Shown here: one piece after another, positions 41,793 through 49,524 of the stretch
Position numbering within the stretch: the first letter of the stretch is position 1
Layout: each line of letters opens with the position of its first letter
NCBI GenBank assembly: GCA_045658225.1
Contig: JAZOUO010000103.1
Coordinates: 1-54,845 of the forward strand
Reading direction: 5' to 3'
From: Eubacteriales bacterium
GTDB taxonomy: Bacteria; Bacillota; Clostridia; Oscillospirales; CAG-272
DNA length: 54,845 nt
Translations under genes and position numbers: made by a program
The notes under the pieces: generated by a model
The model's input: the letters and a program-made list of their open reading frames with translations, nothing else
Told to the model about the DNA's origin: nothing
The model's database searches: none

Positions 41793-43131
41793 ATATCGGA
41801 AGTGCCGAAAGCACGTATTTGAGAAGAAACAGTGCGATAACCACGTACATAACGGGGTGTATCTTTTTGATCTTACCTGCCGCGATGGTGACAACGACGT
41901 AAGACATAAGTCCAAACGCTATGCCGTCGGTTATGGAATAAAACATCGGCATACCGAAAACAGTGATAAACGCGGGAATAGATTCCTCAAGATTATCCCA
42001 CTTTACCTCCCTGAGCGAGCCCGCCATCATAACACCTACCACGATAAGCACGGGGGCTGTTGCCGCGGCGGGTACAAATCCAAGTATAGGCGAGAGGAAT
42101 ATCGAGAGTGCAAAGCATGCACCCGTCACCATTGATGTCAGAGACGTTCTGCCGCCTGCCGAGATGCCTGCTGTGGATTCAACGTAGGTTGTGACTGTTG
42201 ACGTGCCTATCACAGCACCCGCCGAGGTGGCAATAGCGTCTGCGAGCATTGCGCGCTCAAGCTTTGGCATATTGCCGTTCTCATCAAGATACCCCGCCTT
42301 GTCTGCCGCGCCGATAAGAGTGCCGAGCGTGTCAAACATATTTACAAGCACGAGGGTTATCATAACCGACAAAAGCGAAGCAACAGACGTCTGGAACAGC
42401 TCGCCAAATCCTCCGAACATATCTCCGAAAAGGCTGAAATCGAGGTCGGGAACCCACGTTGTAGGCATACTGACACCTACGTCAACCTTAAATACAAACT
42501 GCAATATACAAGCTACCGCGCTCGTTCCAAGGATGGATATGAACAGTCCTCCCTTGACCTTTGCGATAACAAGAACTATCGTAAGCGCAAGACCAAAGAG
42601 CGCAAGAAGTGTTGACGGCTCTCTGAACGAGCCCATTGAGATAATGGTGTCAGGGTTGCTTACGACAAGCCCCGCGTTCTTAAAGCCGAGCAGCGCGATA
42701 AAGAAGCCTATGCCCGCAGCTATTGCCTTTTTCATATTAAGCGGAATTGCCGCAACTATTGCCTTACGCGCTCCAGTCACCGTGAGAAGTATAAAGAAAA
42801 GTCCCGAGATAAATACCGCCGCAAGCGCAGCTCTGTACGACATACCCAGCGTTCCGCAAAGGGTGTACGTAAAGACCGCATTGAGTCCCATTCCGGGAGC
42901 CTGTGCCAAGGGGTAGTTTGTCAGCAGACCTATAAGCCACGTTCCCATAGCCGCCGAAAGACACGTCGCCACCATTACCGCCGTCGTGGGCATATTGGCG
43001 GGCGAGCCCTCTCCGAGCAGTCTCGGGTTAATAAAAATGATATACGCCATAGCGAAGAAGGTTGTAAGTCCCGCTATGATTTCCGTTTTTACGTTAGTTC
43101 CGTTTTGCTTGAGCTTAAATAACTTTTCCAT
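41791..43131 (-). CDS. NCS2/AzgA-type purine permease
   Basis: FKLKQNGTNVKTEIIAGLTTF, APGMGLNA, FDTLGTL and TYVESTAGISAGGRTSL. Confidence 0.92.
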   Translation of the reverse strand: MEKLFKLKQNGTNVKTEIIAGLTTFFAMAYIIFINPRLLGEGSPANMPTTAVMVATCLSAAMGTWLIGLLTNYPLAQAPGMGLNAVFTYTLCGTLGMSYRAALAAVFISGLFFILLTVTGARKAIVAAIPLNMKKAIAAGIGFFIALLGFKNAGLVVSNPDTIISMGSFREPSTLLALFGLALTIVLVIAKVKGGLFISILGTSAVACILQFVFKVDVGVSMPTTWVPDLDFSLFGDMFGGFGELFQTSVASLLSVMITLVLVNMFDTLGTLIGAADKAGYLDENGNMPKLERAMLADAIATSAGAVIGTSTVTTYVESTAGISAGGRTSLTSMVTGACFALSIFLSPILGFVPAAATAPVLIVVGVMMAGSLREVKWDNLEESIPAFITVFGMPMFYSITDGIAFGLMSYVVVTIAAGKIKKIHPVMYVVIALFLLKYVLSALPI

Positions 43132-43168
43132 TATGTCTCCTCTTGCAAGTGTGAGTCGTAATGGAATA

Positions 43169-43197
43169 ATTATACTATATTAAGAGACAAAAGTCAA
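43169..43197 (-). promoter_or_regulatory. SigA promoter for the NCS2 permease
   Basis: TTGACT-17 bp-TATAAT. Confidence 0.65.
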
Positions 43198-43209
43198 TAG
43201 ATTTGGGCT

Positions 43210-44508
43210 TTACATTTTTTTGTCGTCTGTGGCAGGGTTGTCGATGAGTTGACCGTCCTCTGTAAAACGCGAGCCGTGGCATGGACAGTCCCAAGTATGC
43301 TCTGCTCTGTTGTATTTCAGGACACACCCCAAGTGAGGACATCGGGGCGTAGTTGGCGTTATCCAACCAAGCAATGCCTGACCGAGATTGCAAAAAAGTT
43401 GACCTCTGAGAATACTTCTTGAGGGCGAGAACACGTCGGCATATTTGTTCTCCTTTCCCGTCACCATATCCGCAAGCATTATTGCCGAGAGCATGGCGTT
43501 CGTCATTCCCCACTTGTTAAAGCCCGTGGCAACGAAAAGGTTATTCGTTCCGCAAGAATACTGCCCAATATACGGCATACCGTCAAGCGTCATGCAGTCC
43601 TGCGTTGCCCATCTGTGCGTTATCTTTGCGTTTGGATAATGCTTTTTAGCGAAAACTTCAAGCTCGTTGTAGCCTCCTCCCTGCTTTCCCGTGCGGTGAC
43701 TGCCGCCGCCTAGCAAAAGATACTCGCCATAGTTTCGGAACGAAAGCCCCTTTTCCTCGCAGTCGATATACATCCCTTGCACATCCTCCGCACCCGAGAG
43801 AGCCAGCACGTACGAGCGATGCTGATACATCTTTATGAAATACCAGCCGTGCTTATTGATTATGGGAAAATGCGTCGCCACAATGATGCTTTTTGCCTTT
43901 ATTTTTCCCCTATTCGTCAACACTCCGTCGGGCAAGAATTCAAGAGCCTTTGTCTGCTCGAATATTTTAAGTCCCTGACATATAGAGGACACGAATTTGA
44001 GTGGGTCAAACTGCGCCTGATGTGTGAGCTTCACTGCTCCAACCGTCTTTATAGGCAAAGGAATATCCTTTGCAAAATGTGCCTTAAAGCCTATTTTTTC
44101 ATACGCTCGAAGCTCGTCCTCAATCTTGGTTAAATTGTCCGTCGAATAAACAAAAGCATCCTTTTCCTCAAAATCACAGTCCATGTCACGGCACATTTCC
44201 CTGTATTTATCCAGTGCGTCGGACTGTGCCTCAAAATACAGCCTCGTTTTCTCAACTCCGAATTTTTTGATAAACTCGTGGCAAGTAAGTCCGTGCTGTA
44301 TCGTGATTTTCGCCGTCGTGTTTTTAGTCACACCGCCGCAGATTCTGTCCGCCTCAACAAGCGCGTAATTGACTCCCGCGTCGTCAAGTGTTTTAGCACA
44401 CAAAACGCCCGTAAGTCCACCTCCCACGACGAGCACGTCAACTGATGTGTCTCCGTCAAGCGCATCAAACTGCGGTATTTTTGAATTTTCAGTCCATATA
44501 GATTTCAT
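43210..44508 (-). CDS. FAD-dependent oxidoreductase with C-terminal Rieske domain (YhfW-like)
   Basis: VVGGGLTG, TGFNKWGMT and Rieske CPHLGC...WDCPCHGSRF; real start MKSIW at 44508 with GGAGG RBS. Confidence 0.9.
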   Translation of the reverse strand: MKSIWTENSKIPQFDALDGDTSVDVLVVGGGLTGVLCAKTLDDAGVNYALVEADRICGGVTKNTTAKITIQHGLTCHEFIKKFGVEKTRLYFEAQSDALDKYREMCRDMDCDFEEKDAFVYSTDNLTKIEDELRAYEKIGFKAHFAKDIPLPIKTVGAVKLTHQAQFDPLKFVSSICQGLKIFEQTKALEFLPDGVLTNRGKIKAKSIIVATHFPIINKHGWYFIKMYQHRSYVLALSGAEDVQGMYIDCEEKGLSFRNYGEYLLLGGGSHRTGKQGGGYNELEVFAKKHYPNAKITHRWATQDCMTLDGMPYIGQYSCGTNNLFVATGFNKWGMTNAMLSAIMLADMVTGKENKYADVFSPSRSILRGQLFCNLGQALLGWITPTTPRCPHLGCVLKYNRAEHTWDCPCHGSRFTEDGQLIDNPATDDKKM

Positions 44509-44590
44509 TTTTACGCCTCCAAGCTTTAATGCTTTATTATGCGTAGAATTTCGATTAAATATAAGTTTTTTACATTGGTAAAAAACATCA

Positions 44591-44616
44591 AAAAAGCACC
44601 CCGAGGGGTGCTTTTT
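44591..44616 (-). terminator. Terminator closing the orphan-gene array
   Basis: AAAAAGCACCCC-GA-GGGGTGCTTTTT hairpin. Confidence 0.75.
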
Positions 44617-44629
44617 GCGTTGGCTTGAG

Positions 44630-45175
44630 CTACCAAAATAGATGCCGGTTATAAAAGCAGGAAACAAGCTCTTTCAGCATATAAACCGAAACACAACCAA
44701 CAACGCCGAGCATAATGACGGCAACTATGCGAACAAATATCCTAAGCCATTTTTGTTCCATCGTTTTGGCAAATCTTACCATCAAAAACGCCATATATCC
44801 AAAAACAGAAAGCAATAAAAGCCATATGGCAATGGCACATACTTTTTCATTGAGCGTATCTGTATACATTAAAAACTTGTTGGTTTCAACACCCCAAGGT
44901 TCGATCGGTATTTTGGCAACAAGTAAAAATACAAGGTTAATGATGATCACTACTGATGCGGCTATGTAATATACCAAACCGACAACGGACATTTTGCCTC
45001 GATCCTTTTGTCGTCGTTTTGTTCTTTCAAATAAAGATGTACTATCCAAAAAAACCACACGCAGCACAGGATTCTTGATAGAAATATATTTCCCGGTTTG
45101 AAAGCGGCTGTCGTAACCTGCCAAGATGCGAATGAAAAACAAACAAAATATAAATAACAGATACATCATCAGCAT
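44630..45175 (-). CDS. Hypothetical membrane protein (cassette 1, ~4 TM)
   Basis: Hydrophobic segments; AGAAAGGCGGTG RBS 6 nt before the ATG at 45175; upstream TTGAAA-17-TATACT. Confidence 0.7.
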   Translation of the reverse strand: MLMMYLLFIFCLFFIRILAGYDSRFQTGKYISIKNPVLRVVFLDSTSLFERTKRRQKDRGKMSVVGLVYYIAASVVIIINLVFLLVAKIPIEPWGVETNKFLMYTDTLNEKVCAIAIWLLLLSVFGYMAFLMVRFAKTMEQKWLRIFVRIVAVIMLGVVGCVSVYMLKELVSCFYNRHLFW

Positions 45176-45266
45176 AACAATCACCGCCTTTCTGGGTTTA
45201 GTATATCATAAAACCTTTTACTTTTCAATCTGAAATGAAATGTGCCTAAAAACTGTGGATTTTTCT

Positions 45267-45686
45267 TTATTTTTCTTGATCCGAAGGATTGGTTGAAACA
45301 ATAAAACATACAATTCTCAAAACAATATATGTAAAAAACACAATAAGCAGTGCTATTACATCCTCTTTGAAAATGTCTTTATAATATTCATTAAAAAATA
45401 TGAGCAACAAACTCAAATTAGAAAGAATATTAAGTATTGATTTTGCCACGGTTTTGGGTTTGATAAAAAAATAATAAACGGTATAAAACAAATCCAACTC
45501 GTAGAAAACTACAAATCCACCGAGCACTATGAGCATAGCAGCCCCCACGCCCGCCATAATATCAATGCCGTTAGCTGGATCCATATCATAATTATAGGAA
45601 TCTATTGCAGCTTTAATAAAAACGAACGAGGTAATAACAATCAACGCCAAAAAAATAGAGATAATTATTATTTTTTTCTTCTTCAT
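45267..45686 (-). CDS. Hypothetical membrane protein (cassette 2, ~4 TM)
   Basis: 139 aa, hydrophobic and AT-rich; same RBS/promoter module. Confidence 0.75.
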   Translation of the reverse strand: MKKKKIIIISIFLALIVITSFVFIKAAIDSYNYDMDPANGIDIMAGVGAAMLIVLGGFVVFYELDLFYTVYYFFIKPKTVAKSILNILSNLSLLLIFFNEYYKDIFKEDVIALLIVFFTYIVLRIVCFIVSTNPSDQEK

Positions 45687-45691
45687 GTCTC

Positions 45692-45895
45692 CACCGCCTT
45701 TCTAATTTCATTATATCACACTTGGGGGGGTTGCAATATGTTGAGGAAGAGAATTACAGTAGGGCGGCTGATTTGCAAGCAAATCGGCTTGCTCCCGCTG
45801 CTTTCCAGAGGTGACGGCCTGATTTAGAACCCTTACATAAAACGCAAGCGTTTTATGTGTATCGTTTCAAGTGACGGTCAGCGACTCAAAAAAGA
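45692..45895. repeat. ~200-bp cassette repeat copy A (RBS/promoter + GTAG-REP + tRNA-Cys-3'-derived palindrome)
   Basis: Aligns by eye with 46330-46532; shares e.g. GTTGCAATATGTTGAGGAA and AATTACAGTAGGGCGGCTGATTTGCAAGCAAATCGGCTTGCTCCCGC. Confidence 0.9.
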
Positions 45896-45904
45896 TGCCA
45901 ATCG

Positions 45905-46324
45905 TTATTCTATATTTTCTTTTTGTCTATCATTCCTCATCGTTTTGATATGCTTAATGATCGATATAATTTCCATCACAAAAATTGTCACAGCACATAT
46001 GGCAATTCTAATATTGGGAAACTCACTTTTGGCAAATACAATCGGGATCGTAGCGATTATTACCAATGCCATTGCACCATTAAAGATAGGATGAATTTTC
46101 TTAAATATTTTTATTACAGAAAGAACCGCATCTATAAAGTAAAATAATAAACTACACAGTGCCACTATGAGAGCCAATATGGCTAAAGCAAACGATTTAC
46201 TTACGCCACTTTCCGGTTCAATCTCATTGATCGATGTGATAAACGCGCCAAGTAGCAATCCCACGCTAATTATTGTAATCAACATACCAACCATTGCAGG
46301 TATTTTGGAGTAAATTTTTTTCAT
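45905..46324 (-). CDS. Hypothetical membrane protein (cassette 3, ~4 TM)
   Basis: 139 aa hydrophobic ORF; promoter TTGCAA-17-TATAAT (46349-46377) and the same RBS. Confidence 0.75.
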   Translation of the reverse strand: MKKIYSKIPAMVGMLITIISVGLLLGAFITSINEIEPESGVSKSFALAILALIVALCSLLFYFIDAVLSVIKIFKKIHPIFNGAMALVIIATIPIVFAKSEFPNIRIAICAVTIFVMEIISIIKHIKTMRNDRQKENIE

Positions 46325-46329
46325 ATCTA

Positions 46330-46550
46330 CACCGCCTTTCTTGACTTTATTATATCACATTCCTTGGTGGGTTGCAATATGTTGAGGAATAAAATTACAG
46401 TAGGGCGGCTGATTTGCAAGCAAATCGGCTTGCTCCCGCCGTTTTCCAGAAGTGACGATGAGATTTGAACCCTTATTTTGCCCAAGGGCGAGTTGTATCG
46501 GTTCAACTGACGATCGGCGGCTCCAAAAAAGACAGACACCCGATTGGGTG
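46330..46550. repeat. ~200-bp cassette repeat copy B
   Basis: Direct repeat of copy A; contains AAGTGACGATGAGATTTGAACC (tRNA-Cys 3' remnant) and a partial terminator. Confidence 0.9.
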
Positions 46551-46561
46551 CAAATATAATC

Positions 46562-46672
46562 ATCGGATTTGAACCCTTACATAAAACGCAGGCGTTTTAT
46601 GTGTATCGGTTCAACTGACGGTCGGCGGCTCCAAAAAAAAGACAGACACCTAATTAGGTGCCTGTCTTTTTT
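46562..46672. repeat. tRNA-linked repeat copy C, including the tRNA-operon terminator (46633-46672)
   Basis: ATCGGATTTGAACC + hairpin CATAAAACGC-AG-GCGTTTTATG + ATCGGTTCAACTGACGGTCGGCGGCTCCA + AAAAAAGACAGACACC-TAATTA-GGTGCCTGTCTTTTTT. Confidence 0.85.
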
Positions 46673-46747
46673 TGGAGGTGACGATCGGATTTGAACCGAT
46701 GGATAACGGTGTTGCAGACCGGGGCCTTACCACTTGGCTACGTCACC
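46673..46747 (-). tRNA. tRNA-Cys(GCA)
   Basis: GGTGACGTAGCCAAGTGGTAAGGC...CTGCAAC...GGTTCAAATCCGATCGTCACCTCCA; cloverleaf with encoded CCA. Confidence 0.93.
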
Positions 46748-46754
46748 AAAAAAA

Positions 46755-46830
46755 TGGAGCGGATTACGGGGCTCGAACCCGCCACCTTCGCCTTGGCAAG
46801 GCGACGCTCTACCAAATGAGCTAAATCCGC
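46755..46830 (-). tRNA. tRNA-Gly(GCC)
   Basis: GCGGATTTAGCTCATTTGGTAGAGC...CTTGCCAAG...GGTTCGAGCCCCGTAATCCGCTCCA. Confidence 0.95.
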
Positions 46831-46833
46831 ATA

Positions 46834-46910
46834 TGGCGACCCGAAGGGGACTCGAACCCCTGACCTCTAGCGTGACAGGCTAGCGTTCTAACCAACTGAA
46901 CTACCGGGCC
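46834..46910 (-). tRNA. tRNA-Asp(GTC)
   Basis: GGCCCGGTAGTTCAGTTGGTTAGAACGCTAGCCTGTCACGCTAG...GGTTCGAGTCCCCTTCGGGTCGCCA. Confidence 0.95.
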
Positions 46911-46912
46911 AT

Positions 46913-46996
46913 AATTTGACGCTTCGCGTCAAATTGGACTAGTTTGTGCTTCGCACAAACTGCCTATTGTATGCTCTCATTTTGCTTCGCAAAATG
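46913..46996. repeat. Three tandem hairpins, each centred on GCTTCGC, in the Val-Asp spacer
   Basis: AATTTGAC-GCTTCGC-GTCAAATT, AGTTTGT-GCTTCGC-ACAAACT and CATTTT-GCTTCGC-AAAATG. Confidence 0.75.
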
Positions 46997-47034
46997 GGCT
47001 TTGGTTTATCCCTCTATTGAGAGTTAAACTTAAA

Positions 47035-47110
47035 TGGTGGAAACAATAGGGCTCGAACCTATGACCCTCTGCTTGTAAGGCAGATGCTCTCCCAACTGAG
47101 CTATGCTTCC
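47035..47110 (-). tRNA. tRNA-Val(TAC)
   Basis: GGAAGCATAGCTCAGTTGGGAGAGCATCTGCCTTACAAGCAGA...GGTTCGAGCCCTATTGTTTCCACCA. Confidence 0.95.
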
Positions 47111-47143
47111 ATAATCGCGCGGCTTCTGCCTTGCGACTTACCC

Positions 47144-47172
47144 ATTATATCATAGACGAAATTGTTTGTCAA
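47144..47172 (-). promoter_or_regulatory. Strong SigA promoter of the tRNA operon
   Basis: TTGACA-17 bp-TATAAT, extended TG, and an upstream A/T-rich UP-like tract. Confidence 0.85.
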
Positions 47173-47220
47173 TACTTTTTTTGAAAAAATTTTTATTTTT
47201 TCTTGCGCCTCAAAATTTTG

Positions 47221-47258
47221 AAAAAAAGCATTTTCCGACAAGGGAAAATGCCTTTTTT
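47221..47258 (-). terminator. Terminator after the cysteine desulfurase
   Basis: AAAAAAAGCATTTTCC...GGAAAATGCCTTTTTT inverted repeat. Confidence 0.7.
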
Positions 47259-47261
47259 ATA

Positions 47262-48422
47262 TCATCTTTTGAACCTTACGAGTAAACCTATGCCATCCGC
47301 CAGCACCCGACCGAGTTCTTTTATTTCGTCCTCGGTATTATACTCGCACAAACTGACTCTTATCGTCGAATCCGCCTGCTCCTTTGTAAGGCCAAATCCA
47401 ACAAGCGCGCTTGAAATATGCTGAGAGTGAGACGAGCAAGCCGAGCCCGCCGACACGCATATTCCCTTTGCCGACAAGAAATTGAGCATAGTTTCACTCT
47501 TTATGCTAGGAAGTCTTACGCTGATAATATGTGGCGCGCGCTCGCCTGTGGGAGTGTTTATCTGCGCGCCTGCGCGTATAATCTCTTCTTCGGCAAGCCG
47601 GCGAAGACCTATAAGCTTTTCTCTGTTCTCTGAAAGCTTGTCAAGACCAACCTTTGCCGCCGCAGAAAAACCGACTATGCCGAGAACATTCTCCGTTCCC
47701 GAACGCAATCCACCCTCCTGACCGCCGCCTATTATATAAGGTATTATTTTTTTCGTCTTTATTATCTCGGGAGAAACATAAAGCGCGCCAACCCCCTTTG
47801 GTCCGTGTATCTTGTGCGCGCTGATACTCACGAGATCCGCGCCAAGCTTTTGCGGGCTGAACGGTATTTTCAAATATCCCTGAACCGCGTCACAATGTGT
47901 CACAACGTCAGGATTGATTTTCTTTGCCGCAGAAAAAATTCTCTGAACGTCATAGACCGCGCCTGTCTCATTGTTTACCATCATTACGGACACCAAAAGC
48001 ACTCCGCCGTCCATTTGCTTTTCAAAGGTCTCAAAATCAAAGACTCCGCCACGTGTGGATATTCTTACCACTTCAAAGCCGTCGCGCTCAAGCCTTTGCA
48101 TAACGTTTTCAACCGACGGATGCTCCGAGTCTGTGGTTATTATCTTATTCCCACGGCGCTTGTCCTTGGAATAAACACTTCCGAGAATAGCGAGGTTGTT
48201 CGCCTCAGTACCCGACGAGGTGAATACCACTCTTTGAGCCTCACTCTTTTTAAGTCCGAGCGATAGCGCGACGTTCTCCCTTGCCTGCTCTATCTGCTTT
48301 TTTGCTTCAAGACCCAATGCATGTCTTGACGAGGGATTACCGTAGACGTCAAGCATATGAGATATACTCTGCTTTGAAGCCTCACAGAGTGCCGTAGTTG
48401 CGCTGTTATCAAAATAAATCAT
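47262..48422 (-). CDS. iscS: Cysteine desulfurase (IscS/NifS family)
   Basis: IYFDNSATT, GNPSSRH, FTSSGTEANN, PLP-lysine SAHKIHGPKG, RSGTEN and catalytic SAGSACSS. Confidence 0.88.
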   Translation of the reverse strand: MIYFDNSATTALCEASKQSISHMLDVYGNPSSRHALGLEAKKQIEQARENVALSLGLKKSEAQRVVFTSSGTEANNLAILGSVYSKDKRRGNKIITTDSEHPSVENVMQRLERDGFEVVRISTRGGVFDFETFEKQMDGGVLLVSVMMVNNETGAVYDVQRIFSAAKKINPDVVTHCDAVQGYLKIPFSPQKLGADLVSISAHKIHGPKGVGALYVSPEIIKTKKIIPYIIGGGQEGGLRSGTENVLGIVGFSAAAKVGLDKLSENREKLIGLRRLAEEEIIRAGAQINTPTGERAPHIISVRLPSIKSETMLNFLSAKGICVSAGSACSSHSQHISSALVGFGLTKEQADSTIRVSLCEYNTEDEIKELGRVLADGIGLLVRFKR

Positions 48423-48432
48423 TACAGTTTCC

Positions 48433-49524
48433 TTATTTTACCTTAAAATGCTCTATCATTTTGTTTGCGTCTGCAATATGAGCATCATAATTTTCCGCTG
48501 TAGCGGTGTAGGTTATAACGTAGTATATCTCGCCCTTGAGAATTATAACCTGCTTGAATTTGTACTCTACTCCGCCACTCTTGCCAGCAAAAGTACCTAC
48601 CATACTTCCTTCAATACCGCCCGCGGTCTGAACAGAGCTTTCGCCCTCAACAAATTCGGTCAGAATATTCTCGTACTTCTTCATACAGCTCTTCCAATAC
48701 GTCTCGACCGAATGCTCCGTCTCGCTTGGCATAATGAACTGCACCGTAAGGTTCGACTTGTCAGCCGTATAAACATTGGTTATCTGACCGCTATTGTCAA
48801 CGTGCCAATCGGTAGGAGCGAAAAGAATATACGGCCTTTCCTTTGAGGACGCGAGCTTCATTCCCTCGGGAGCTTCCACCTTGTCATATTTTTTGTTATC
48901 CTCGCTGACGTACGCATCGGCAAACTTGAAATAGCCAATAATTCCAATGTCTTCCTCGTCGGGATTTCCGTTCATATCAACAACTCTCTGCTCGTAATCC
49001 GTATCGGGCGCGCAGAAAACAAGAACGTACATCTGCCCGTTATGTATTGCCATTATCTGCATAAACTTATACGTGACGGGAATGACCTGTTCGGAATCAC
49101 CAATCCCCGTATTCTTTTTCGCAGTGTAAACGTACTTACCTGCCGACTCACCGCCAAGCACCGTCGTGCCGCTTTCGCTCTCGATGTATTTGAAGTCTGT
49201 AAGCTCTGAAGAAAGCTTCTGTGTACAAATCTCCCAATATTCAGCAACAGACTTGCAACCCTTTGCGTCGTGGGGAGTATAAACGCTCACGACTGTGGCG
49301 GGCTCACCCGTAGCCTCACTTGAAAGCGCAAAGTACGCGCTTGTGACTCCGCTGCTCGTGTTAGACGCCCAGCCCTGCGTAGGCACGTACAAACGGAAGG
49401 TGTCGCCTTCCCTTGCTATAAGCTGATATCCATCGGGAACATCCTTTTTAGAGCAACCCGAAAGACTCAAGGCTGATATAATTATACAGAGTGTTAAAAT
49501 TAAAATTCCTACTCTTTTTTTCAA
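48433..49524 (-). CDS. Lipoprotein with two tandem PsbP/DcrB-like domains
   Basis: TTG start; lipobox LSGC; internal repeat (VPDGYQL...FRLYVPTQGW / APEGMKL...YILFAPTDW), each ending KF.Q...Y..(V/I).F/Y.A....Y. Confidence 0.7.
   Translation of the reverse strand: MKKRVGILILTLCIIISALSLSGCSKKDVPDGYQLIAREGDTFRLYVPTQGWASNTSSGVTSAYFALSSEATGEPATVVSVYTPHDAKGCKSVAEYWEICTQKLSSELTDFKYIESESGTTVLGGESAGKYVYTAKKNTGIGDSEQVIPVTYKFMQIMAIHNGQMYVLVFCAPDTDYEQRVVDMNGNPDEEDIGIIGYFKFADAYVSEDNKKYDKVEAPEGMKLASSKERPYILFAPTDWHVDNSGQITNVYTADKSNLTVQFIMPSETEHSVETYWKSCMKKYENILTEFVEGESSVQTAGGIEGSMVGTFAGKSGGVEYKFKQVIILKGEIYYVITYTATAENYDAHIADANKMIEHFKVK

Follow-up and report, generated by a model that had tools for sequence, protein, structure and literature searches.

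Arrays of small accessory genes with a shared expression module behind tRNA genes in a genus of uncultured Clostridia

INTRODUCTION

Integron cassettes are mostly promoterless and are read from a platform promoter. Transfer hotspots without mobile elements offer a second point of comparison, and for these the portion of Oliveira, Touchon & Rocha (2017, PMC5635113) drawn on here proposes double homologous recombination at the flanks. The rAID-1 clusters of Bacteroidales have a conserved XerD-family recombinase at one end, according to the excerpt of bioRxiv 10.1101/471110 that we use, and a section of Zhang et al. (2012, PMC3482391) lists SuFu (PF05076) and leucine-rich repeat (LRR) proteins as immunity proteins of polymorphic toxin systems. 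The E. coli tyrT operon with rttR and tpr is mentioned in a passage of bioRxiv 10.1101/2024.07.17.603846. Here we analyze a 2-kb array of three small genes, encoding the hydrophobic proteins P3, P2 and P1, that lies directly downstream of a tRNA-Cys gene on the 54.8-kb contig C103 (JAZOUO010000103.1) of an Eubacteriales metagenome-assembled genome (MAG; G000, hereafter the own genome). The window is this whole contig of 54,845 nucleotides.

A sequence-only reading of the window had proposed an integron-like array of self-promoted cassettes growing at the tRNA end. The modular, cassette-like organization is supported by our analysis. The integron-like mechanism is not: the array is no integron by membership, because no recombinase was found on the contig, no attC-type site was recognized, and each gene has a promoter of its own. 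We read the tract as a tRNA-flank flexible islet of self-contained promoter-gene-terminator units. Its content would be exchanged through general recombination, with conserved tRNAs and repeated modules as the sites, and its pseudo-tRNA repeats would be local duplications. We put the probability of this reading at roughly one half. The comparison set comprises 39 species genomes of the genus, 16 of them high-quality; all genome data come from incomplete MAGs, and the own genome is 82% complete.

RESULTS

A shared promoter and ribosome-binding module

All features of the array are on the minus strand, in the order tRNA Val-Asp-Gly-Cys, two gene-less units, P3, P2, P1 (Table 1). The sequence-only reading had described three co-oriented, AT-rich open reading frames (ORFs), a gene-less unit adjoining tRNA-Cys, and a first gene preceded by the promoter module alone. 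Each part of this description holds: the ORFs lie where it placed them, the unit is present, gene 1, which lies 91 nt after gene 2, has only the module, and GC content is 31-40% inside the array, compared with 43-53% in its flanks.

The 12-mer AGAAAGGCGGTG precedes each of the three genes, behind a compact extended -10 promoter. The pattern TGATATAMT-N(5-9)-AGAAAGGCGGTG occurs three times in the window and not once in any of 100 shuffles, and the 12-mer with at most one mismatch is found three times, compared with a shuffle mean of 0.25. As had been claimed, the distance from 12-mer to ATG is 5-6 nt; the spacer between box and 12-mer is not the uniform 7 nt of that claim but 6, 6 and 7 nt. The sequence TGATATAAT is an extended -10 box. 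In the promoter scan, genes 3 and 1 have a hexamer 17 nt upstream of it, and the corresponding hexamer of gene 2, found by reading the sequence, went unreported because its spacer is 15 nt. The 12-mer matches the complement of the 3' end of 16S rRNA at 11 of 12 positions, the mismatch being the central C. With only 6-7 nt between box and 12-mer, transcripts should start at or adjoining the 12-mer. The module is a -10 box plus a Shine-Dalgarno (SD) sequence, and most of its shared letters are therefore expression signals. Its spacers are common as well, since the TATACT-AAACCC-12-mer variant of gene 1 also stands before a homologue of gene 3 in G001 and before one of gene 2 in G007.

The module is found on variable genes elsewhere in the genus. 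The 12-mer has 97 copies in 29 of the 39 genomes, and its reversed control has 25. With linkage defined as a same-strand tRNA gene at most 3 kb upstream, 40 of the 97 copies are linked, against a null of 2.1% (2.09% of strand positions in the own genome lie within 3 kb behind a same-strand tRNA). The distance from tRNA to 12-mer is usually 150-500 nt, and the tRNAs concerned are those for Gln (13), Cys (10), Trp (6), Thr (4), Lys (2), Asn (2), Tyr (1), Arg (1) and Ser (1). Among the 57 copies that have no linked tRNA, 25 are less than 3 kb from a contig end. Many copies sit within a few hundred bases of contig ends (e.g., at positions 67, 138, 277, 329, 343 and 382), which suggests that modules or units break short-read assemblies and that arrays are probably under-counted in MAGs.

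Cargo behind the module

The cargo is diverse. The 75 ORFs that follow a 12-mer with a -10-like box fall into 42 BLASTP clusters, and a Pfam scan of 30 cargo proteins (29 cluster representatives and the LRR gene on contig C64 of the own genome) gave no family above cut-off for 21. The families found, apart from those of three core genes taken up in the Discussion, were SUFU, DMP19-like and LRR_4 (once each), a metallo-beta-lactamase fold, DUF2310 and 23S_rRNA_IVP. Genes for four-helix bundles of the last family (PF05635, 91.5 bits) turn up repeatedly right after tRNA-Trp or tRNA-Tyr and have the module too, at loci L127, L096, L100 and L166 (in G047, G041, G021 and G012), and the tRNA-Cys array of G001 includes a copy interrupted by a stop codon. 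The suggestion that the cargo could be immunity proteins has indirect support from the SUFU, DMP19-like and LRR proteins of relatives; P1-P3 have no such match.

The cargo of relatives includes mobile-element kinds (23S_rRNA_IVP, an XRE-type regulator, SUFU, DMP19, LRR), and the window cargo is AT-rich. Both would be expected if tRNA-integrating elements, such as prophages, integrative elements or satellites, had accreted in tandem and decayed, losing integrase and core genes, until only att scars and att-adjacent cargo were left. We consider this quite improbable. Neither the array in the window nor the flanks of tRNA-Cys in relatives showed, by eye, any phage or conjugation gene or an integrase pseudogene, and the module has been kept with gene 3 across distant species, which indicates long residence and not recent decay.

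A second array in the own genome (L088, C64:35100-37600, minus strand) consists of three unrelated small genes, whose products are a membrane protein of 166 aa, an LRR protein of 296 aa and a protein of 89 aa. A near-identical extended -10/SD module precedes each gene, and a conserved terminator module follows it. The array occupies the end of an island that begins close to tRNA-Asn and includes an insertion-sequence-like gene (from ORF reading) and four larger genes, a setting that also fits decayed elements. Contig C48 of the own genome has units downstream of tRNA-Gln and, after them, a GTAG hairpin, the module and a gene for a 134-aa membrane protein.

One cargo family occurs behind tRNA-Trp, tRNA-Arg and tRNA-Cys in different species, and another behind tRNA-Tyr and tRNA-Trp. 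This sharing of cargo between tRNAs would suit site-specific capture, in which a tyrosine recombinase supplied in trans, by the genome or a helper element, inserts promoter-bearing mini-cassettes at the tRNA T arm and 3' end so that they stack by the tRNA, as in the integron-like model of the sequence-only reading. The same explanation could account for the tRNA-Gln locus, where a promoter block of about 75 nt is conserved in six species and the ORFs behind it are unrelated, except for the L116/L148 pair. On the evidence weighed in the sections below, we regard capture as unlikely.

Gene content behind tRNA-Cys

It had been proposed that gene content downstream of tRNA-Cys would vary between related genomes, and it differs in all 12 genus species whose flanks we read; the flanks of relatives were judged by eye from ORF starts, without family searches. 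In the own genome (G000), tRNA-Cys is followed by P3, P2 and P1. In G001 it is followed by a P-loop gene, P3 and then others; in G019 by P3 and then an XRE-type gene; in G015 by that XRE-type gene alone; and in G007 by P2. G011 has a sugar-kinase/ABC-transporter block, 15 kb before the oxidoreductase gene that flanks the array in the window (a 76% nucleotide-identical copy on G011:C7, 15 kb from the repeat), and G004 has a similar ABC-transporter block with no kinase ORF listed. Other small membrane proteins follow in G049 and G052, and unrelated genes in G005, G018 and G020.

The P2 family is present in 3 of the 39 genus genomes and the P3 family in 7 (0 and 2 among the 16 high-quality genomes), and P2 relatives occur in 5 of 301 genomes drawn evenly from the order, across three families. 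There is thus no fixed trio of genes; homology between P2 and P3 is marginal (see below), and the module precedes variable genes elsewhere. Gene 3 has an 80% nucleotide-identical copy on G001:C3, and a gene 1 homologue with the same module lies at another locus, G011:C48. Promoter blocks within one locus are near-identical in G052, G050 and G049, which fits duplication or gene conversion.

Relative to G015, G019 has a 1.2-kb insertion that carries the P3 gene, with a copy of the tRNA-Cys 3' end exactly at each of its two boundaries. So precise an indel is a point in favor of site-specific capture. However, no integrase was recognizable by ORF-start reading beside tRNA-Cys in the 12 species, which counts against it.

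Beyond the genus, we examined 25 loci of P3 relatives at 38-74% identity (L071, a 25-residue partial match, is excluded from the counts). A tRNA lies upstream in 15 of them (tRNA-Cys in 9, tRNA-Gln in 6), GAAAGG[CT]GG is kept just before the start codon in 19, and the motif GGCATCTTTT directly follows the stop codon in 8. Many cassette genes, at 45899 in the window and in many relatives, have the motif GGCATCTTTTTTG(TCAACACG) immediately after their stop codon. The reverse complement of this motif comes straight after the tRNA-Cys CCA in G001, G015 and G019, so that the 3' flank of tRNA-Cys is present in inverted copy at cassette 3' ends. A Gut-1 RNA motif (RF01706) matches at L034:8056-8130 (G019:C72) on the minus strand with 60.9 bits (gathering score 50), within the spacer that precedes the gene 3 homologue there, and a sub-threshold match of 47.2 bits lies nearby on the opposite strand. 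Runs of short GC-rich hairpins with constant spacers flank the cassettes of G001 and are comparable to that spacer.

Pseudo-tRNA units and hairpins

Genes 3 and 2 are each preceded by the direct repeat of about 200 bp that had been described, recovered as 114 nt at 86% plus 77 nt at 87% identity or as 207 nt at 81% (E 2e-47), with a period of 636-641 nt. The degenerate tRNA-Cys 3' ends reported within it are real as well: repeat family D4 has three copies, the true tRNA end included, at 73-76% identity, so that the window has the direct repeat of a tRNA 3' part that is a genomic-island trait. The units also carry an inverted copy of the tRNA 3' half, which the sequence-only reading had missed. 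Gene-less units are about 108-113 nt long with a repeat period of 108-110 nt, and unit 3 belongs to families D3 (87% identity) and D4 (73%). At G006:C92, at least three tandem copies of the unit 2 type, 80-85% identical to it, are followed by a different cargo gene, and behind that gene stands the terminator that closes the window array, at 88-93% identity. Such tandem gene-less units of 108 nt are explained more easily by slippage or unequal crossover than by capture.

A palindrome with arms of about 45 nt is centred on the tRNA-Cys terminator, one arm being the T arm and acceptor end of tRNA-Cys and the other its inverted, degenerate copy. It folds at -50.2 kcal/mol (z -9.9), and none of 200 shuffles folds equally well. 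Unit 1 folds at z -2.7 relative to shuffles, and units 2 and 3 fold no better than shuffles (z -0.2 and -0.6), for which reason we propose no structured RNA for these two.

We scored the spacers at 33 tRNA loci with a module downstream against the last 30 nt of tRNAs. Direct copies have a mean score of 13.8 for the adjacent tRNA, compared with 6.5 for other tRNAs, and inverted copies 8.3 compared with 6.4. The pseudo-tRNA copies are thus local, matching the adjacent tRNA best. Direct copies score at least 11 at 19 of the 33 loci, and this frequency suits decayed elements; the first copy typically ends only 100-170 nt past the tRNA, so that in most loci the supposed element between them would be tiny. 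Inverted copies reach a score of 11 at only 4 of the 33 loci, which is awkward for capture if units made of inverted copy, hairpin and direct copy are to serve as folded or duplex recombination sites.

Several arrays have another direct copy before the next module. At L092, tRNA-end copies end 49 nt before each of two modules, and L094, L153, L159 and the window have a similar layout. These multigene arrays with a tRNA-end copy before each cassette speak for capture, as do the clean units at one tRNA-Arg and one tRNA-Gln locus, which end in a near-perfect direct copy spanning T arm to CCA, and a conserved hairpin that lies between the inverted and direct copies of the adjacent tRNA at four tRNA loci of the own genome. 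On the other side, genes 2 and 1 have no pseudo-tRNA copy after them, and the order GTTGAAC...GTTCAAA is unlike the attC R''/R' consensus.

The unit found at tRNA-Thr loci is an almost complete pseudo-tRNA in direct orientation, interrupted by an insert ahead of the T arm. L107 (G016:C65) and L109 (G041:C17) have one or two such tandem pseudo-tRNA-Thr copies behind tRNA-Thr, with D, anticodon and T arms intact, an insert of about 47 nt before the T arm, the 5' acceptor strand lost and a terminator copy of their own. We considered whether inverted copies in general might be the degenerate D arm of a direct pseudo-tRNA. This is valid at the tRNA-Thr loci and was rejected for the Cys and Arg loci, because there the match extends into the T stem in the inverted sense.

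GTAG-led hairpins are present at 45759 and 46400, as had been noted. Copy 1 has a 95% identical copy at G000:C76:2030-2072, and more copies occur in G011 and G006; only about 7 hairpins of the GTAGGGCGG type were spotted by eye among 58 pattern matches. An origin from REP-associated tyrosine transposases (RAYT; REP, repetitive extragenic palindrome) was dropped, since the sole Y1 transposase of the genome is IS200-like and its end hairpins look unrelated.

Recombinases and metagenome joints

Family searches found no tyrosine recombinase, serine recombinase or Y1 (IS200-type) transposase in the 54.8-kb window, a further point against capture. The whole MAG has two tyrosine recombinases (PF00589; contigs C85 and C59), no serine recombinase and one IS200-type Y1 transposase. 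The two tyrosine recombinases could serve capture in trans; contig C59 is uninformative as context, being 1.7 kb long and holding the integrase only. The Y1 transposase gene (G000:C16:462-818) is on a 1.75-kb contig, and its flanking hairpins look like the element's own ends. No attC-like site was recognized in the window by inspection; imperfect palindromes exist.

Metagenome contigs, which can show joints and not excision, reproduce the window arrangement in three runs of one study that may include the source sample (pieces 44515-45781 and 45769-46422). Co-occurring relatives show alternative joints at module boundaries, 44622>45182 in two of four runs and 46637>44591 in one of four. The joint 45210>46564, present in three of four runs at a depth of 5.5-8.2, was set aside as evidence: 39 other letters lie between its sides, the shorter side is 21 nt, and it may come from another organism.

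The three membrane proteins

The sequence-only reading had called the proteins orphans, and this did not stand. Besides themselves, P3 has 117 homologues, P2 809 and P1 44, in metagenomes and in MAGs labelled Clostridia. A Pfam scan of P1-P3 at E up to 10 gave nothing above cut-off (best E 0.12) and no match to a known immunity-protein family; the homologue families likewise have no Pfam domain.

The three genes had also been described as mutually dissimilar, which is true of P1, unrelated to P2 and P3, and less clear for the other two. P2 and P3 are both 139 aa long, and the repeat period is 636-641 nt. They align in register by BLASTP, a weak match with 27% identity over 60 aa (E 0.026), and their family profiles align in hhalign over 84 ungapped columns (E 0.0024, with a probability of just 12%). 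AlphaFold models of moderate confidence (pLDDT 77.4 for P2, 67.8 for P3) show four long helices in nearly the same positions, and Foldseek found no match for either model in the PDB at E<=0.001. It is plausible, on this weak evidence, that P2 and P3 are remote paralogues.

These likenesses are what one would expect if a block of repeat plus 420-nt gene had simply been duplicated in tandem and had then diverged strongly, with nothing mobile involved. Several observations make that highly unlikely. The noncoding repeat is 81-87% identical, whereas the coding parts of genes 2 and 3 show no nucleotide repeat at the 60% identity floor of the repeat finder; the hhalign probability is low; P1 is unrelated; and the families are separately widespread (810 and 118 proteins), each occurring alone behind tRNA-Cys in other species (P2 in G007 and G217, P3 in G019 and G001). 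Any P2/P3 paralogy is far older than the flanking repeats, and the data lean toward a split of the two families long before the genus, followed by recent coalescence of the repeats.

As for function, our guess is that P1-P3 protect the envelope, by conferring immunity to a membrane-acting toxin or bacteriocin or by excluding phage.

Other features of the window

Coordinates are collected in Table 1. A scan found 10 terminator-like sites, compared with a shuffle mean of 2.6. An Rfam scan of 43000-48500 (E<=1) gave only the four tRNAs above gathering score, and the microRNA-type matches in that interval are due to the long hairpin. The stretch from tRNA-Val to tRNA-Asp has two hairpins with a GCTTCGC/GCGAAGC loop (46940-46998), and a third stands at about 46915-46937; tRNA spacers in other parts of the own genome have mini-hairpins like these.

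Table 1. Features of the tRNA-Cys array and its flanks, in window coordinates
Feature	Position	Strand	Description
tRNA-operon promoter	47144..47172	-	TTGACA-17-TATAAT with TG; 12/12 consensus matches
tRNA operon Val(tac)-Asp(gtc)-Gly(gcc)-Cys(gca)	46673..47110	-	Conserved left anchor of the array
tRNA-Cys	46673-46747	-	ARAGORN
Long imperfect palindrome	46600..46705	-	tRNA-Cys T arm and acceptor end, intrinsic terminator, inverted tRNA 3'-half copy
Gene-less unit 1	46560..46672	-	Terminator, inverted pseudo 3' half, 10-bp hairpin ACATAAAACG..CGTTTTATGT, direct pseudo T arm
Gene-less unit 2	46447..46559	-	Terminator-like hairpin, inverted pseudo 3' half, different hairpin, direct pseudo T arm and acceptor end
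GTAG-led REP-like hairpin, copy 1	46400..46440	+	
Gene 3 promoter and 12-mer SD	46330..46377	-	TTGCAA-17-TATAAT with TG
Gene 3 (P0003, P3), 139 aa	45905..46324	-	Four-helix membrane protein, conserved uncharacterized family
Unit 3	45805..45904	-	Terminator T-run remnant, inverted pseudo 3' half, conserved hairpin, direct pseudo T arm and acceptor end
GTAG-led REP-like hairpin, copy 2	45759..45799	+	
Gene 2 promoter-like region and 12-mer SD	45692..45745	-	TTGCAA, 15-nt spacer, TGATATAAT
Gene 2 (P0002, P2), 139 aa	45267..45686	-	Four-helix membrane protein, second conserved family
Gene 1 promoter and 12-mer SD	45182..45228	-	TTGAAA-17-TATACT with TG
Gene 1 (P0001, P1), 181 aa	44630..45175	-	Hydrophobic protein, third conserved family
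Intrinsic terminator closing the array	44591..44616	-	11 pairs and T run
FAD-dependent oxidoreductase, C-terminal Rieske-like end	43210..44508	-	Conserved right flank; function from reading the translation only

DISCUSSION

In the reading that we favor, the flexible islet has two kinds of component. One to three tandem units of terminator plus pseudo-tRNA would be local segmental duplications of the tRNA's own 3' part. With them stand one or more transcription units, each with a near-consensus extended -10 promoter, a 12-nt SD sequence 6-7 nt later, a small accessory ORF and usually an intrinsic terminator, and the promoter/SD travels with the gene. Content would turn over by general recombination, whether double crossover, unequal crossover or gene conversion. 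One anchor would be the nearly invariant tRNA genes, and the other either the next core gene or the promoter, terminator and pseudo-tRNA modules that recur. The tRNAs of the operon are 92-100% identical across the genus and so would suit as anchors for exchange between species. General recombination is, we infer, the most economical mechanism; what the data show directly is the anatomy, the tie to tRNAs throughout the genus, the variety of the cargo, its patchy occurrence and the lack of a recombinase nearby.

Several points weigh against this reading. No recombination event was seen directly. An integrase classically leaves direct copies of a tRNA 3' end as its scar, and such copies bound the indel between G015 and G019 exactly, so that site-specific recombination explains it as well as deletion between repeats does. 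The hairpin between inverted and direct tRNA copies at four loci is unexplained by simple decay of a duplicate, and the promoter block at tRNA-Gln looks like a fixed platform with swapped genes. At the completeness of the own MAG, a recombinase could also have gone unassembled. Finally, the exact 12-mer stands before core genes that are not tRNA-linked, namely SpoIIIAA, Fe-ADH and a helix-turn-helix protein, and the 12-mer alone is therefore not a cassette-specific mark.

One could see in these loci an undescribed tRNA-anchored capture system of uncultured gut Oscillospiraceae-like bacteria, in which a recombinase in trans stacks self-expressed mini-cassettes at pseudo-tRNA sites, each made up of the tRNA 3' half in inverted copy, a conserved hairpin and a direct copy from T arm to CCA. 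We think it distinctly unlikely that this is so. If true, it would be a Firmicutes-type functional analogue of the integron, with at least nine tRNA species as possible platforms.

Taken alone, P1-P3 are a modest finding, since they are hypothetical membrane proteins that are conserved and lie in an islet of variable content. Should the pattern hold, tRNA operons across a genus of uncultured animal-gut Clostridia have structured slots for small accessory genes in their 3' flanks, which would be kept, swapped and expressed from a standard promoter/ribosome-binding module. It would also supply a search rule (tRNA, then pseudo-tRNA units, then 12-mer module) for a flexible and probably conflict-related gene pool, whose roughly 40 uncharacterized small-protein families are candidates for immunity or phage exclusion. 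The genus could further serve for finding out which of two processes, general recombination or an unrecognized site-specific mechanism, drives turnover at hotspots that have no integrase.

Keyword searches of the literature, which did not cover supplementary locus lists, found no description of the tRNA-flank module; this is not proof that it is unpublished. Several described systems resemble it in part. Like integrons and integrase-less attC clusters, the arrays consist of co-oriented, small, unrelated genes with structured intergenic repeats and variable content. They differ in that there is no IntI on the contig, the repeats are unlike the R''/R' layout of attC sites, each gene has its own promoter and not a platform Pc, the anchor is a tRNA and not attI, and the host belongs to the Clostridia. 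In an integrase-mediated island at a tRNA site, the direct repeat of the tRNA 3' end is the trait shared with our locus, and an integrase gene within the island is the one not found here.

The 3' repeats of E. coli tyrT, 178 bp in length, can be likened to the gene-less units: in both, tandem repeats lie directly downstream of a tRNA and each contains a copy of the tRNA 3' end, as seen at 46447-46672 and in units of the same type at G006:C92 and at tRNA-Gln, tRNA-Arg and tRNA-Thr loci. The units described here add an inverted copy, a conserved hairpin and a terminator of their own, and promoter-bearing accessory genes follow them. Phage morons are likewise independent promoter-gene-terminator units of foreign composition between conserved neighbors, whereas our array is at a chromosomal tRNA flank and not in a prophage, with no phage genes seen nearby. 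The minimal mobile elements of Neisseria place different genes in the same slot between conserved flanks by homologous recombination; the flanks here include noncoding expression modules and tRNA genes.

The rAID-1 clusters and polyimmunity loci, in the parts of their descriptions used here (bioRxiv 10.1101/471110 and PMC3482391), are also arrays of small, unrelated, horizontally moving genes with integron-reminiscent repeats, and some cargo of our relatives falls in the listed polyimmunity families (SuFu PF05076, LRR). In contrast to them, the contig has no XerD-family recombinase, P1-P3 match no immunity family, and the arrays hold one to four genes and are anchored at tRNAs. The resemblance to the transfer hotspots of PMC5635113 lies in a short interval between conserved anchors, often by a tRNA, with high turnover and no integrase. 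What sets the present loci apart is a common promoter/SD module for each gene, pseudo-tRNA repeats between units, and at least nine tRNA types in one genus, and the portion of PMC5635113 considered here describes no such internal modular repeats. Altogether, the main interest is the genus-wide architecture of tRNA flanks, a variant of known hotspot and cassette-array phenomena.

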